Source: Eledone cirrhosa (Eukaryota). From it: DNA of 64,000 nt. Every line of letters starts with the position of its first letter. The first letter of the stretch is position 1. The notes under the pieces are model-generated. The model saw only the letters and a list, made by a program, of their open reading frames with translations. It was not told the origin of the DNA and did not search any database. The stretch lies in the NCBI GenBank assembly GCA_964016885.1, contig OZ024751.1:45260001-45324000 (forward strand), in the 5' to 3' direction. Both the position numbers and the translations under genes were made by a program. Shown here piece after piece: positions 22,301 to 37,445 of this stretch.

Positions 22301-25300
22301 TGGTAATACCATTAATTGTATTTAAGTGTACCAGACTAAAATCAATGGTTTGATAACCAACATATCTAAATCAGCATCCCACTGTTCTGAGTTCAAATTC
22401 TTTTAAAATTGACCCTTTAGCATTTACTGGTGCTACGCAGTAATACAGAAGACCCACCTTGCCTATGTACAAAGCGAAACCTACAGTCAGTAGGCACCTC
22501 TTAACCAAATATACACCACAATCCACTACCCCTCCCACTCCCACCAACACAGCCCTCTCTCTGTAAAGTTGGTACCACAACATCCAGTCCAAATAAATGA
22601 GATAATGAGATCGAGATTGTGTAGGTGTCACAACAAAAAACACAGTCAACACTGTAATGTGGTCGTGTAGGTAACACGGTAAAAAGTTCCCAGTTCCACA
22701 TTGTAAATGTGGTTGGTGTTAGGAAGGGCATCCAGCCGTAGAAAACCTGCCAGATAGTCCTATATGAGCGAGACACGGTCACCTGACCAACCTTGACTCA
22801 AATTGGGACAACTCTCGTCTAACCCATGCTAGCGTGGAAAATGGACGTTAAACGAAGATGATGATGATGATTACTCTATATTTACTATTGTATTTTTGTG
22901 GTAAAGTCTTTATCTTACATAATTGTTTCTACTTTTGGCACAAGGCCAACAATTATCCAGTACATTACTGGTACTTTATTTTATCGACCCCCACTAGGAT
23001 GAAAGGCAAAGTTAACCTCGGCGGGATTTGAACTCAGAATTGCAAGGGCCGTAACTCTATGCGTCAAAGCATGGCGTCCGACCCTCTACCGATACTGCCA
23101 ATCCATCTCACATAATATTGAATCTATGAGATTTTGATATTATTTATATTGAGAACAATGTCTTAACATCACTACAAGTGGCAAGTTACGGCTGGTTTGA
23201 ACAGAAAGAGGTGAGAGAATTCTGGCTGGATATGGCCGATTTAAATGCTAAAGGGTTAATAGAACAAATATCAGTAATTTGCTGGTGTTAAAACTCAGCT
23301 ACATTCCAACCTTAGAAACTTTATACATTACATTCAAACAAAAAAGAAAATGTTATTGAACAATGTAAAATAACCAATCCTGGTGATAATTGAAATATAA
23401 AACATTCCTCTCAAGTTAATTATAAAATGTAATAAATATAATTAGAATATAATTAAGAAAGAAAATCATGAAAATAAAACAAATCTGAAAACACACACAC
23501 ATGTGTGTGTATATATGTATATATATATATATATATATAGCTTAAACTAAAATATGTTCTTTGGAACTTGTTAGTTTTCAAATTCAATAATTGCTATTTC
23601 TTTATTGATTTAAATGTAATTGAAATAAAATTCATTATTCTCATAAAATGTCTAGCAGTAGTTTTGCTGCAGGCCTGCCTTTAGGAGACTTATGATCAAA
23701 GGCTTTTCAGCTATGACCATCATGTTTTCTTTTCTTAGGCAGTGTATACCCATGATCACATTACCAAGTCTGTCCTTTGTTTTTTAGGCATTGTACACCT
23801 ACAATCACATTATCTAGTGCAGCGTTTCTCAACCTTTTTACCATTGTGGAACCCTTGAAATAGGTTCATGTCTCAGGGAACCCCTACATAAAAATTATTA
23901 TATACCATTATTAATATCTATCTCTTATATTGACCTAGTTTTAAATAATTGTTTCTACTTTAGGCACAAGGCCAACAATTACCTAGTGCATTACTGGTAC
24001 TTTATTTTATCGACCCCCGTAAGGCCTAGTTTTAAATAATATAAGAGGTTGAAGCCTTTTACGACAATATGCCGTAAATGTATAGTAAAATTACGAATAT
24101 AAAATTAAACAAAAATTACTTTTTAAAATACATTAGTTTATTTATCACTGGTTCTCGCGGAACCCCTAGCGACCTTGCGGAATCCCAGGGTTCCGGGGAA
24201 CATCGGTTGAGAAACGCTGATCTAGTGTGTCCTTTTTTCTGAGGCAGTATACTCCCACATATTTGTCCTCTTCGAAGTATGCCCCTCCCACTATCTTGTA
24301 CCTCCTCCACACACCACACGTAGTCCAGTGATCCTTCTACTGTTTGAAGGATGTTTGGAATGCTTCTCCAGAATTGCTGTCTACATGATGTCCTATCGAC
24401 TCAAAGCTAAAGCTTTTCAGTGGCATCTTCATTTTTGGGAATGGGGATTTCTTAAGCAAGAAACCTTGAATTAATTATGACAAATGAACTGGTGCCTTGT
24501 CATGGTGCGGTTACCAGGTTTGCGAGGCCCACAGATCTAGTCTCTTGCACAAAACTGCATCATTTTTACATCCATTTTCTATGCTTCTAAAGTGCATGCT
24601 AGTTGTGTGTGTGTCTATATGTATATAGATAGATAGATAGATACATACATATGCAGACAAATATTTAAGTTTACTCTTTACTTTTAAATCTACCTGTCCC
24701 TGTTTCAGATTGTTATTCTGTATCCCCCCCCCCCCCTCTCTCCTCTACCTTTCCCTTGATCCCCCTCTCCTTTTCTCTTTTCTTTTGTCTGTCTTACCTG
24801 CAATTCTCTCAATCTCTCAGGCTAATCTAAATATATCTAACACATACTCTCACCCCTCCCTCTCTATCACCAACTTTCCTCTTCAGTAATCCTACCCACC
24901 CCTGTCTCCAGCACTTCATCAACCCTCTTCTCCACTATCTACCCTCTCTTGCTATCCACCCTGCGATCTACCCTGCCAGCAGTAAATACAGACCAAGATT
25001 GATAAACACCTGCCTGTATATCAGTCATTAGATCTGGTCACTCCTGCTTCCTTCTCTCTCACACCACACCTCATTTTCTTCTCCTTCCTTCACCCTCTCA
25101 CACCCTGATCCCCCTCCTCCTCTCTGAGCCTTTCTCACCATATTCCTCTTACTGTCTCTTCCTCCCCCTCCCTCTTATTGATACAGTAATGATTGATGAC
25201 CAACAGCCTGTCCAGGATGGGGAAGTGGAGGGGATAGGACCAATCTTTAGAAATAGAACAGTTTTTAACATTTTGGTCAACAAACTCACTTCCAAGAAGG

Positions 25301-26006
25301 AAGTAATTAAAAGTACATCAAAATGTTTTTTTTTTTGTATGTATGTGTGTTCCTATATATGTCAACAACGAAAAAAAAAAAGAAAAAAAAACTACATGAG
25401 AACAATACAATCCAATGATAGTGTCTATTCCTCCCCTCTCCCTTTTTTTCATTGATTCTTTTTCTTTTCATTTCCCTTTTTTTGTTCCTTTTAATAGTGT
25501 TTTGTTTTTGTATAAACAGCTTTGTAAAATAAAATAACTTAAAACAAAACTCCAATGATAGTATATTAGTTTAATGCTTGATAGAGTTGGAAGAGAGTCT
25601 TAATGTTTTTGGCTAGTATCGCATGAGAATATGGAAAGAGAGGATGTTTGAGAGATAGTGAAGGAAAGAAAAGGTATGTGTTAGTCAGTCATCTGTATGT
25701 ATGTGTGTGTGTATATCATCATCATCATCATCATTTAAAGCAAGGTGTTGATAAGTTACCATAGACCAAATCAGTACTTTAGCCCTCTCTGACAATCCTA
25801 TTTATATATATATATATAACAAAGGAATTGTGGTAAGGAACCAGATGGACCATAACGCACCAGAGTACTCAATACTTAGGGTAGTAGAGTGGGAAATAGG
25901 AAAAAGTATGACCCCGACGGCAGAGCTCAAGCCGTTTCGATGGCTATTTCTGTCCAGAAATAGCCGTCGAAACGGCTTGAGCTCTGCCGTCGGGGTCATA
26001 CTTTTT

Positions 26007-26040
<34 letters not shown>

Positions 26041-28779
26041 AAAGTATCAAAGGAAACTCAATCTTTTTTCAACAAATAATAGCTTTTAATCCCTTACAAA
26101 TGTTTCAGATGAACTATGACTTCGAATTATTCAAATTTCATTTCCACACACACACACCCACACATATATCTATCTATACATATGTATATACACACACACA
26201 CAGCCAGGCACTTAAACACCATCACAAACAAATATATAGCTTATTCCTCCAATATATATGCTGATACACAAAAAATTAAAAATACAACACACAAGCACTC
26301 ACATGTCACCCTTTTAAAAATTTTATATTTTCTAATCTATCTACTCATGTACTCGCCTGTTGAAGGGCTAACGTCCAATGTATCAACCTTCGTTTGTAAT
26401 TTATATAAATGAAATAATTACTGTATATACTCAAATGTAATCTGACCCCACTTTTTTATGTCTGAAAAATGGGCAAAAATCCAAACCTTATTTACATAGA
26501 ATTTGAAGTTGGTGAAAATCGTTAAAATATTGACCCCCAAAAATATATATATTTATATATATATATATCAATGATATTAATAAATGGAAACTATATTTAT
26601 AAAACCATATTTATTCTATTATATATATTTCAAGGGTATCAAAACTTTGGTACGCTATCATCAGATAAAATACAAAGTTTGTTTTATAAATATTGACATA
26701 TCCAGGAATGAGACCTTAACGGTTCAAGTTTCACCTGGATATCTAGTTTTGGTACTCTTGAAATATATATAATAGAATAAATATGGTTTTATAAATATAG
26801 TTTCCATTTATTAATATTATTGATATTATACTCCAGAAAACCTGTTGAGTGCTTCGAATCTGTTATAAATATATTTGTTGAATTACCAACAAATTAAATA
26901 TCCCTTTGCTTATATATATATATATATATTTTTTTTTTTTTTGTCACATATTCCTCGGTTTTTATTCGAGTATATACGATGTATACTTGCAGTTTAAACC
27001 CAGACTTGAAAGTAGCTATAAATGGAGCACAAAGCTATAAATGGAGCACAATTGTTGTTAATGATGACATCTAATTCCTAGTTAGTGTCAAGTCTCCTAT
27101 GATCTACATTCTTGGCAACATTTATCTTGCAGTGTTTCTTGTCACACAGCTAATTTGGAATTTATTTTCTTCTCAATGTATTTATTTTACTGAAATTACT
27201 GGATATTTTTGTTTAATTCTTTTCTTCAATAAATTTGAATTAAATTATGTTTGTAATAATAAAAAAAAAAAAAAAAAAAAAAAAAAATGAAATTGTGAAA
27301 ATAATGGAAATGAGTGGCAGCTGACTCTATACCCCAGTCTATGCTGTGAAAGAAAGAGGGGGAGGAGGTAATATGACACTGAAAGAGTGGTGAATTATGA
27401 AAATGTGTAGAGCGTTAGATAAAATGCCATTGTGGTATTCGTTCTGGCTCTTTACATTCTGAGTTCAAATCCCACTTAGGTCAACTTTGCTTTTCATCTT
27501 TCCAAGGGTCAATGTGGGGGTTGATCTTATGAACTTACCCCTTCTGAATTTGCTGGCCTTGTACTTAAATTAGAAAAAAAATATTATGGGACTGAGAATG
27601 ACAGTAAAAGGTAGAGAGCTAAAACCACTGTGGTGGCAGTAGAGAAGCAGGCAATAGCTACATGTAAATAAAAAGAGAAAGGGAAAAGTATGTCCTAGAC
27701 ACAGAGAAAGATATAATAGATGTTTCTACTGTATATTTCTTCATCTTTATCTTAGATATGTTAATGGTCATGCAAGAAAGCACTACGAAGAAGCCAATAC
27801 ACGTACACACTCAGTTTGCATGGATTGTGATAGTTACTCTGCCTTTTGGTAAGTACACAAACACATTTTATTATACAATTCCTTACCGTATTCCTTGATT
27901 TTTGTTTTATTTAATTTTACCGTATAAAATTCACCCTGTCAACCCTGTAATGTGGTAGTGTTGATGTCATGATAAAACACATCCAGTTCACTCTGTAATG
28001 TGTTATTGTTGGTGTCAAGATAAAACACATCTAGGTATTTCAGCCATAACCATCCTGACTTTTTATGGGTATCTAAGACTATATTATCTAATATGTCCAC
28101 CTGAGGGTGTATTTGAGGGAGATTTGGCTGCTATTTCTAGTAAAGTTTTGTCATTAAATCTTTAACATCTTGTACCACATGAAAAGCACAAACACCACTA
28201 TGACTGTATCATATTAAGAATGAAAGTCTTTGCTCTAATATTTAACATTTTCACAACAATCTGTCCACTAGTAAAGACACAATAAACATTTGAATTAACA
28301 AACCTTTTTTTTTTAAGACATTTTATGCTAAACCATTATAGGAGATAACTAAATTTTTTCTATTTAACTGATGTTTTTTTTTTTTTTTTTTTTTCTAAAT
28401 GTAGAACAGACAGCTTTCTGTTGTCTTAAGGCTATTTACTCTGTCATAATTAATATTCTAATTAATAATTGCCAGACTTTTTAATTAACTTACACTCTGT
28501 ATTTCTCCCCCACCACCTTCTATTTATTATAATGTATTAAAAAAATTATCTAGATTTTCTTCCATCAATGTTGTGTTTAATCTTACTTATAGTCAACACA
28601 TTTTACCTCCTCCTTCTCCTCCATTGCCCATTACCCACACCACTGTCTACTATCTTCGTCCAATTTCCATGCTGGCATGGGTTGGACAGGATTGTTACTC
28701 TCTGGGTCAGTTCCTATTCACAGTCACACCTCCCCCACTCCTAGATGGAGGTCAGAAGACCATATCTCTTGCTTAAAAC

Positions 28780-28828
<49 letters not shown>

Positions 28829-31547
28829 ATTTTTTAATTCTATTTTCCCTGTCCATATTTTTCAAAGCTTGAATACATTATTAGATAGAGCTTGGAGATG
28901 ACAGAACAGATGTTATTGGCAGGACTATGGTAATAGAGAATTAATCCAAAGACCCAGTAGTCGACTACTATAACCATCTAGCCACACACAGACAGAGTTA
29001 GTATTATTGGCATGACTGTGGTAAAAGAGAATCAATCCAAAGACCCAGTAGCCGTGTATATCTATCTAGCCTCACACACACACACACACACACACACAGT
29101 GTTACTGGCATGACTGTGGTAATAGAGAATCAATCCAAAGACCCAGTAGCGATCTAGTATCTATCTAGCCTCACACACACACACACACAGTGTTACTGGC
29201 ATGGCTGTGGTAAAAGAGAATCAATCCCAAAACCCAGTAGCCGTCTATATCTATCTAGCCTCACACACACACAGTGTTACTGGCATGGCTGTGGTAAAAG
29301 AGAATCAATCCAAAAACCCAGTAGCCGTCTATATCTATCTAGCCTCACACACACACACACACAGTGTTACTGGCATGGCTGTGGTAAAAGAGAATCAATC
29401 CAAAGACCCAGTAGCCGTCTATATCTATCTAGCCTCACACACACACACACACACAGTGTTACTGGCATGGCTGTGGTAAAAGAGAATCAATCCAAAGACC
29501 CAGTAGCAATCTGTCTACACCCACCTAGCCTATGGCTCTAGACATCTTACAAATGAATGATGCTGCAGCTAATATTGTTTATCATTACTATCATCATCAT
29601 TACCATTATCATCACTACAGCCACTATCACTACCATTACCATCATCACCACCATTACCATGATCATCACCACAACCATCACTATTATCACGATCATTATC
29701 ACCACCATTATTATTACTAGATAAATGTTATTGCTCTTTCCTCTGTCTGTCTGTCTGTGGGTCCTTGTGTGTGTGTGTGCAATCAAGACTATATGTAAAT
29801 ATATTTGTATTTAATGCATTCCTCTACATGTGTGTATGTGTTTGCATTTGTAACTGTCTGTGTATATGTAAGTTCATATCTGTGTGATATCTTCTCTTCC
29901 CCTCCCTCCCCCTGTTCCCACCCCAGACCTCCCACCAGTTAAAGAATCAATAACTATATTTAGTTTAGTAGTCAGTTTTAATCTTACTCTTAGTCAAACA
30001 TATTGATTGGAAATGACTAAACTTTCCACTTAAATTCTCCATTATGTTGCTGTTGTTGTTGTTAAGCAGGATTCAGTAATTTGATTTTTGTTTTTACTTA
30101 TTTTACATTTTTTTTAAATGTATATATGTGCGTGTGATATATATTGATGTATAGATATACACACACACACATGTGTATATATTTTAAGAATTACGTTTAT
30201 TTGTGAATTTACTTATTTTCTGAGTTCATTTTGATTTTATCTTTTTGTCTTGTTTTTTTTCTTTTCTGAATTGATAAAATATGTACCTGTTATTGAGTGG
30301 GGTTGATAAAATATATACTTGTTATTGACTGGGGTTGGTATCTGTCATCGACTGGGGATGATGAAATATGTACCTGGGGTTGATTTAATTAACTACATCC
30401 CTATCGGTAATCATTCAGACATACGACAAAGATTTTTAGTCAATTTTATTTCAGAGTTGTCTCTCTTGAATTTCTTGACAATAATTAATGAAGTTTTCAA
30501 TAACTCCTGTTTTAGTTGGTTGAATAATTTTTGTTGTGGTAAGGTGTGCTCCCACTTAACTATATATTCTTCATGTGGGAAATACTCATATGTATGTGTA
30601 CATCGCAAATTCTAGAATGCGGTGTCAGGAAGGGATCTGGCTGTAAAAAAATTCTCAAAACATCCCATCCAGCCCATGCCAGCATGGAAAAGTGCACATA
30701 AAATGATGATGATAATATCACACACACACACATATATATATATACACACACATCATCATTTAATGTCTATTTTCCATGATGGCATGAGTTAAGCAGACTG
30801 TCTTGTTATGAGGTCAGACGGATCAGGTGACCACGTCTTAATCATACAATCTGGTTTTGGCTTGGTTTCCTAGTTGGATGCCTTTCATATATTGAAAGCT
30901 TTTTTTTTTTCTTGACATCAGCATTGCCACCATACAGGGTGGATTGGGTGCTTTTCGTCATGCCACTAGTACAACCACTTTACAGGGTAAACTGTCAGTC
31001 TAGATGTAATATATGTCTTTATCTGTAGTAATAGAAGCAGTAGTACCACCAGATGTGTGTGTCTAGATGATAATATACAGATGTAATAGATGTCATTATC
31101 AGCAGTAACAGATGAGTGTGTGTACCAGTCTAGATGTAATATGTCTTTATCTGTAGTAATAGTAAGAGTAATGTCACCAGATGTGTGTGTGCCAGTCTAG
31201 ATGGCAATATACAGATGTAATATGTCTTTATTTGTAGTAATAGTAGCAATAGTACCACCAGATGTATGTATGCTAGTCTAGATGGCAATATACAGATGTA
31301 ATGTTTATCTTCATCTGTAGTAACAATAGTAGAAGTATAGTATCACCAGATGTAATGTGTGTTTATCTGTAGTAATAGTAGTAGCAGTAATGTCACCAGA
31401 TGTAAAATGACATTTACAATTATCATTACTCATAACTCCTGACTAAAACATAGCAAATTTCATGTTTTATTCATCAAACTTCATCCATTTTAGCTTTGCA
31501 ATATTTCTCTCTCTCGTTCTCACACTTTCTCTTATATTATCTCTTAA

Positions 31548-36501: not shown

Positions 36502-37445
36502 ATAAATTTATAACACTGTGCCACACACCGTCTCACTCAATACTAACTGAAATGACTCCTAGTAACAGAGTTACTTCACTTAACAGAATCAGTGGTGTAA
36601 TGGCAATATTGAACAGACTGATTAGGTTTAGCAATATATTTCTTACTCTTGTTTCTCTTTCGATTTTTCTCTCTCTCTTCCAATGAAGGACCAATGTCTG
36701 AAACATTAAGACTATTTTCTTACTACATCAAATGTTAAACTAATATATATCATTATATTGTATTCTTTTCCTATAATGTTTTTTTTTGTTTGTTGACTCT
36801 TTGCATACACGCATGCATGTGTGTGTATATATATATATATATATACACGCATGCATGTGCGTGTGTATATATATATATATATATTGTTATACTTTGGGAG
36901 GGTCATGTTGCCAATAAGAAACACACGCACCAGTTGCTTTCACTTCAATTTAATTTAATATATATTTATAAATTTCTGGTTGGTTGGTTGGTTCCACAAC
37001 CAGATAGTTGTTTATATATATATAGTCATAGTTCTTTCGTCACACACTCTGTGACCTCTTCAGTGACTGGGGATTTCTTTCTTCGTTTCTGTGCCTTTCC
37101 TTTCTTCTATCCTACGCCATTTTGTTTGTGTGTCACACAAACAAAATGGCGTAGGATAGAAGAAAGGAAAGGCACAGAAACGAAGAAAGAAATCCCCAGT
37201 CACTGAAGAGGTCACAGAGTGTGTGACGAAAGAACTATGACTATATATATATAAACAACTATCTGGTTGTGGAACCAACCAACCAACCAGAAATTTATAA
37301 ATTTATAAATATATATTAAATTAAATTGAAGTGAAAGCAACTGGTGCGTGTGTTTCTTATTGGCAACATGACCCTCCCAAAGTATAACAATATCGGTTTC
37401 AACACACGATTTCAGATAAAGAATCTTGCTAAACAAATTCAGAAA

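Follow-up and report, generated by a model that had tools for sequence, protein, structure and literature searches.

Insertions of Penelope-like elements (PLEs) that carry an inverted, truncated copy of the pLTR, a palindrome at the junction of the two copies and a tail on one side only are already known (PMC8557442; PMC3846280), and the origin of their inverted ends is named as an open question in the pertinent section of PMC8557442. The reading published for these junctions, as given in the corresponding part of PMC3846280, is self-priming on an antisense template. The PAc protein of Anolis Poseidon, a PLE of another clade, cuts and extends both target strands in vitro, and initiates reverse transcription at two sites, one at either limit of the tail (PMC11167929). 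The clade closest to the element described below is Hydra, which is characterized in section 11 of PMC8557442 by an RWK-like motif, DKT, a CxCx5C linker, the lack of CX2-5CxxC and (TA)n targets. Variant ribozymes are also on record, as Cercyon PLEs of Schistosoma have U3-A8 in place of C3-G8 in the PLE type I hammerhead, which in their case is minimal and needs dimers (PMC4209133).

The stretch of DNA analysed here (64,000 nucleotides of Eledone cirrhosa, contig OZ024751.1, positions 45,260,001 to 45,324,000; hereafter the window) contains an inverted repeat with arms at 25896-25952 and 25955-26011, which pair over 57 bp with one mismatch (25941/25966) and enclose a loop of 2 nt (25953-25954). 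The fold has a z-score of -15.87, and 0 of 200 shuffles were equally stable, so that the hairpin and its 2-nt loop, as described in the first-pass annotation, are real. The extent given there (25897..26010) falls short of the full insertion, since the left arm reaches about 25814 via an unmirrored tail of 82 nt. Positions with a sign are hereafter counted in the sense of the element, with the G of GAAA as 0. The tail-bearing arm (25814..25952, minus strand) comprises element positions -14 to +124 and is 97% identical over 140-150 nt to the parent copies L143 and L138, and the short arm (25952..26011, plus strand) comprises -17 to +42, its terminal TAT blending into (TA)n. The tail itself (+43 to +124; 25814..25895, minus strand) leads into the 5′ leader and the ORF in ORF-bearing copies. 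The two arms meet head to head at 25952..25955, as read directly against intact copies; G25952 is common to both and thus constitutes a 1-nt microhomology, and the 2-nt loop is a continuation of the short, tail-less arm. By sequence, the target microsatellite forms a left (TA)n flank at 25803..25818 and a right one at 26009..26037, and no target-site duplication is readable at the locus.

Each arm contains the 3′ half of a hammerhead motif. The half in the short arm (25958..25998, plus strand), read directly and laid out according to intact copies, consists of the stem II 3′ strand (25958-25968), GAAA (25969-25972), stem III (25973-25989, with 4 bp at 25973-25976/25986-25989), the UC site (25990-25991) and the stem I 3′ strand from 25992 onward; the half in the tail-bearing arm (25909..25949, minus strand), also read directly, has its GAAA at 25938-25935. 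Reading of the sequence thus confirmed the GAAA, the 4-bp stem III and the UC reported earlier, and likewise that the 5′ half of the ribozyme is missing and that the mirror arm stands in its place. A complete hammerhead core on one strand is absent from the locus, the 5′ half lacking on both strands, and the sequence folds as a single long hairpin; the locus itself cannot be an active ribozyme. At its centre, position -14 of one arm is joined to -17 of the other, within the 3′ strand of stem II (distal helix). The locus is an ordinary copy of a high-copy element, and its value lies in the statistics of the family. Elsewhere in the window are found a MITE-like inverted repeat at 26565-26826 (82-nt arms, 96% complementary, 98 nt apart) and a tandem array at 28900-29540 (seven copies of a unit of about 90 nt, with (CA)n tracts).

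The hairpin is a head-to-head pair of 5′-truncated ends of a Hydra-clade PLE lying in (TA)n. Its parent, about 3 kb long, was reached through longer copies, one of which (L143) shows the order inverted copy, pLTR half, tail, ORF, 3′ UTR and final pLTR ending at +42. Both L143 and L142 carry, in damaged form, a reverse transcriptase (RT) with YRDD, a C-terminal GIY-YIG-like motif and the same pLTR. The ORF pieces contain RWR, DKT, YRDD, CxCx5C, the GIY-YIG-like motif, CxxC and CxH; the CX2-5CxxC motif is absent from them, and a Pfam search with them gave no match at E 0.1. The parent has the organization of an EN+ PLE, namely a single ORF with RT and C-terminal GIY-YIG (in damaged copies), a pLTR, partial tandems, an inverted 5′-truncated copy and a tail at one end only. 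It fits the published description of the Hydra clade, judging from motifs and targets, in having RWR for RWK, DKT instead of DKG, the CxCx5C linker, CxxC and CxH near the end of the endonuclease, insertion into (TA)n and a length of about 3 kb or less. Hydra-1_Obim, as far as it is depicted in PMC8557442, shares with it the order RT then GIY-YIG, the motifs RWR (for RWK), DKT, CxCx5C, CxxC and CxH, the length of about 3 kb, the (TA)n target and the presence of a hammerhead close to the 3′ end; however, comparison by eye with the published protein fragments places the two in different families, and a 16-nt motif of the present family has 0 matches in the supplement of PMC8557442. A pyrimidine-rich segment of the window at 24730-25220 resembles the 3′ part of another retroelement and does not match the Hydra-clade parent.

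An exact 33-mer of the arm occurs 9,545 times in the 3.0-Gb genome, and at least 12,010 hairpins were found genome-wide as two exact arm anchors lying head to head no more than 30 nt apart; the reversed-pattern controls gave 0 in both searches. The earlier proposal that the inversion is tied to retrotransposition is borne out. With the inverted 5′-truncated pLTR insertions described so far the family shares the inverted head-to-head copy, the junction palindrome and the tail at one end only (PMC8557442; PMC3846280). It differs from them in that the whole insertion is an inverted pair of 200 bp, of which there are more than 12,000 copies sharing a single sharp 5′ boundary, and in that the tail is 82 nt long instead of the 30-40 nt given for them in these sources.

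The putative ribozyme of the parent is a variant one. Canonical CTGANGA was found in 0 of 107 intact arms, 69 of which have U3 with A8 and 35 C3 with A8, and in 30 further loci of other subfamilies, counted by eye, TTGAGAA occurs 20 times, CTGAGAA four times and the canonical sequence not at all. The core of intact copies is therefore UUGANAA (U3-A8) or CUGAGAA, and since position 7 varies freely among intact arms (C, A, T or G), the register of the hammerhead core is fixed. A canonical type I hammerhead in the parent can thus be ruled out. The missing half had been taken to be CUGANGA, and CTGANGA was expected upstream in intact relatives, its absence being what the annotation itself had named as contrary evidence; intact relatives do lack it, though a variant core stands at that place. 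The genome does hold 41 matches to CTGANGA upstream of an arm, but these are junction insertions or chimeras, and no matched string has the stem II 5′ strand right after the core. With its U3-A8 pair, its free N7 and three stems around the core, the parent has the features of a candidate U3-A8 variant of the type I hammerhead.

In intact copies stem II is long (about 55 nt, -56 to -1). Its proximal helix of 9 bp, next to a G-C pair, is separated by an internal loop from a distal helix of 7 bp, and the apical loop occupies -29 to -22. The 2-nt loop of the locus had been said to sit where the loop of stem II would be; the -14/-17 junction lies elsewhere. The three-stem shape is the minimum-energy structure of L338, from a further subfamily, with a z-score of -0.08 against shuffles (not significant), and it is not the minimum-energy fold of L341. 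The Rfam hammerhead models gave no match on the intact copy L138, and no hammerhead was among the best 150 of 234 Rfam matches on the window, which were nearly all to microRNA models on simple repeats. The predicted motif shares U3-A8 with Cercyon, but its stem III is complete at 4 bp and its stem II is long and in two parts, where the hammerheads treated in PMC4209133 are minimal; Hydra elements, in turn, are said in the relevant part of PMC8557442 to have canonical cores, unlike the present family with its U3-A8 or C3/A8 and its 55-nt stem II. One subfamily (L002, L301-L330) keeps the C3/A8 core mismatch in 33 of 34 arms, two others having U3-A8, and a loss with compensatory repair of the core pair is a possible explanation. 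A few arms, that of L079 and others with ends at +16 to +23, break off close to or exactly at the cleavage site predicted for the motif (+22/+23); this is no evidence of cleavage, because a 7-nt direct repeat at that place yields the same result by deletion.

The 5′ ends of the arms were mapped in 85 consecutive loci of one contig (C1), picked by one exact 33-mer and hence anchored on exact motifs. There is a sharp 5′ boundary near -18 to -21. Among the 155 arms of this sample, 117 end at -11 to -25, 23 at 0 to -10 and two further upstream, and 13 run through the whole ribozyme. The commonest end points are -18, -17, -14 and -12, tailed and tail-less arms behaving alike, and the 3′ ends lie almost without exception at +42 or +124. 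The expectation that inversion breakpoints should cluster at stem II is fulfilled by these counts. In 4,343 hairpins of the genome, neither arm ends short of -18. The boundary does not depend on a mirror, as 56 of 79 arms without an intact one stop at -11 to -21, in a set that takes in some damaged mirrors and loci preselected through the search for upstream CTGANGA. Arms joined to (TA)n, to unrelated DNA, to other repeats or to ORF-internal sequence also stop at -17 to -20 (L005, L039, L048, L052, L059, L084, L092, L102, L188, L208, L210, L218, L224, L227 and L286), and at eight loci (L062, L063, L075, L096, L176, L192, L199 and L200) the tail-less arm ends at the boundary while its tailed partner ends at +48 to +99. 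Most ORF-bearing copies examined extend upstream beyond -18, so other, longer templates (read-through tandems) must be used too; one ORF-bearing copy (L208) opens with the same hairpin. As an observation in its own right, seven loci (L032, L034, L039, L043, L049, L052 and L059) are chimeras: an arm of the family breaks off at -12 to -19 and is followed by ribozyme-region sequence from a second family or from a third repeat. In five others (L208, L210, L218, L224 and L227) ORF-internal sequence runs, without inversion, into an arm that begins at -17 to -19, and L210 and L218 have an identical junction; such joints resemble the outcome of a template jump at the end of the RNA, or of a deletion in the source copy.

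The junctions themselves are varied. Exactly one arm is tailed in 96 of 99 hairpins, both are in three, and neither in none; 72 different centres occur among the 99, the commonest six times, which means that most of them are independent events. The loop of 57 clean junctions continues the tailed arm in 27 cases, the tail-less arm in 22 (the type to which the copy at the locus belongs) and neither in eight, where the arms end equally; this count drops 42 of the 99 hairpins, which have insertions of more than 1 nt, damaged arms or two tails, and it rests on stricter references, a laxer variant rule having given 26, 17 and 10 of 53. A cDNA primed at +124 that folds on itself must own the loop, so a loop owned by the tail-less arm cannot come from one self-folding cDNA without a further cut. 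The junctions show 0-2 nt of microhomology or short insertions, some of the insertions being templated.

We consider it somewhat probable that each hairpin arises from two cDNAs, one per target strand and each with its own fixed priming site, which run off the RNA at a fixed 5′ end and are then connected tip to tip; the loop-owner counts and the arms without a mirror favour this reading over single-strand self-priming. The endonuclease would nick both strands of the (TA)n target, each nick would prime one cDNA, one at +42 and the other at +124, mostly from the same RNA or from the same source copy or a sister RNA, and both cDNAs would halt at the RNA 5′ end. Their two 3′ tips would then be joined via 0-2 nt of microhomology, either directly or after one tip has formed a short snap-back and then switched to the other. 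A process of this kind is known from L1 twin priming, in which the two opposite strands of the target each prime once and the resulting inversion is joined by microhomology; L1 inversions are not known to duplicate sequence. The present family differs from L1 in that both arms copy the same 57 nt, starting at two fixed sites. Poseidon PAc offers a likeness in its two RT start sites, which lie downstream of the hammerhead and bound the tail, in the cutting and extension of both target strands and in its AT-rich targets, but neither a fixed 5′ boundary nor a joining of inverted pairs is described in the main text of that report (PMC11167929). The published reading of PLE junctions, self-priming in the account of PMC3846280, contrasts with our counts, which favour two cDNAs from sense RNA. 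The joining step itself may be a minute snap-back at the extreme end of a cDNA that has run off its template.

A single cDNA could also yield such pairs: primed at +124, it would run off the end of the RNA and snap back at its tip through a single base pair (not through stem II). Copying would turn it into a duplex capped by a hairpin, and resolution by a nick near +42, on one strand or the other, would then produce both loop orientations. This route fits the one tailed and one tail-less arm of nearly all hairpins. Self-priming has been proposed for PLE junction palindromes in the discussion given by PMC3846280, and endonuclease resolution for the tail in that of PMC8557442. In most clean junctions a loop of 2-6 nt could be closed by a single base pair. 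The register of the copy at the locus is that of 24 of the 99 hairpins and coincides with the axis of an imperfect inverted repeat native to the element (-25 to -6); both features suit a snap-back. The subfamily variants, scored by eye, are nearly always common to both arms, with L246 and L238 as clear exceptions, and this speaks against two cDNAs in so far as a fold-back on a single template predicts it too. However, tail-less arms with the same boundary exist without a mirror, no usable loop is left by the equal-ended junctions (8/57) or by the five of 50 listed loci in which both arms stand at -18 with one base between them, L246 pairs arms from two subfamilies, and two RT starts have been seen in vitro in another PLE (PMC11167929). 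We regard the single-cDNA route as unlikely, but as a rival to be taken seriously.

It is improbable that the insertions began as long palindromes whose centres were later eroded by cruciform breakage and end joining. Sixteen distinct long inverted pairs, with centres of 88-1,513 nt, do exist, and the junctions carry microhomologies and templated insertions, but erosion leaves unexplained the sharp edge at -18 to -21, which is seen in non-mirror arms as well, and a near-perfect palindrome of 513 nt persists in the window. Still less credible is a short non-autonomous master hairpin copied as a unit: its outer ends are fixed, and many copies have the junction of the locus (picked by a query including that junction), but the diversity of centres speaks against it, as does the finding of an equal centre in both orientations and in different subfamilies.

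The palindrome just mentioned (36881-37393) belongs to a second family, each of its arms containing a complete canonical minimal hammerhead (core starting at 37203, GAAA at 37228-37231). The palindrome is centred outside the ribozyme, some 70 nt upstream of the core. Genome-wide, 730 hairpins of this family have that centre, by a search pattern that detects such centres only and so gives no denominator; among second-family copies met by chance in other loci, five have the same centre and two run on upstream. The junction is usually a single G-C pair a few bases upstream of a start-codon-like ATG, which is followed by one codon and a stop. A fixed centre thus needs no stem II, because this family places its hairpins outside its ribozyme. 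The mechanism first put forward, in which stem II of the ribozyme folds the cDNA back on itself, lends its loop to the hairpin and so sets the inversion point, agrees with the breakpoints falling within the stem II region but is very hard to maintain. The product expected from it, whose arms would end at -53 and -11 around a loop of 33 nt, has 0 exact matches, in a search covering one subfamily with no mismatches, against 648 arms that cross the distal helix; the observed centre is displaced from the apical loop by 5-8 nt in the 3′ direction; and loops owned by the tail-less arm, stops without a mirror and the second family all contradict this mechanism.

Returning to the reading with two cDNAs, we infer that the boundary is explained most simply, for all kinds of arm, by an RNA with a fixed 5′ end. 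The bases T-T-A-G-T at -20 to -16, which we take to resemble an initiator with its A at -18, are constant across subfamilies while their neighbours change. An internal pLTR promoter is described for Penelope of D. virilis in the relevant part of PMC2377424, and the chances that the boundary is the transcription start of such a promoter seem to us evenly balanced. The extra G expected from copying of a cap is found in 8 of 11 insertion junctions against 3 of 10 non-mirror arms, and non-templated ends, 34 of them scored by eye, include 13 of G type versus 16 of C type. Many arms reach -19 to -22, adjoining the apical loop of stem II, so a cut in the RNA or a hard RT stop next to that loop is a possible alternative cause.

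A search of the open-access literature found no description of a fixed breakpoint or of twin priming in PLEs; neither a sharp 5′ boundary common to the arms and lying within the ribozyme nor counts that speak against single-strand self-priming were encountered there. With thousands of independent junctions whose ends are fixed, the family turns the question of the inverted ends of PLEs into one of counts and of a simple assay. Taken together, the observations allow a tentative reading, which we hold to be rather doubtful as a whole, in which transcription would start inside stem II, so that the capped mRNA, with half of a monomer-competent hammerhead, could not remove its own cap, read-through tandem RNAs would hold the whole ribozyme, and a dimeric enzyme would prime both target strands on the short leader. 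If this were true, the more than 12,000 hairpins would be a base-resolution record of both RT start sites, of the RNA start and of the joining step behind the inverted ends of Penelope elements.
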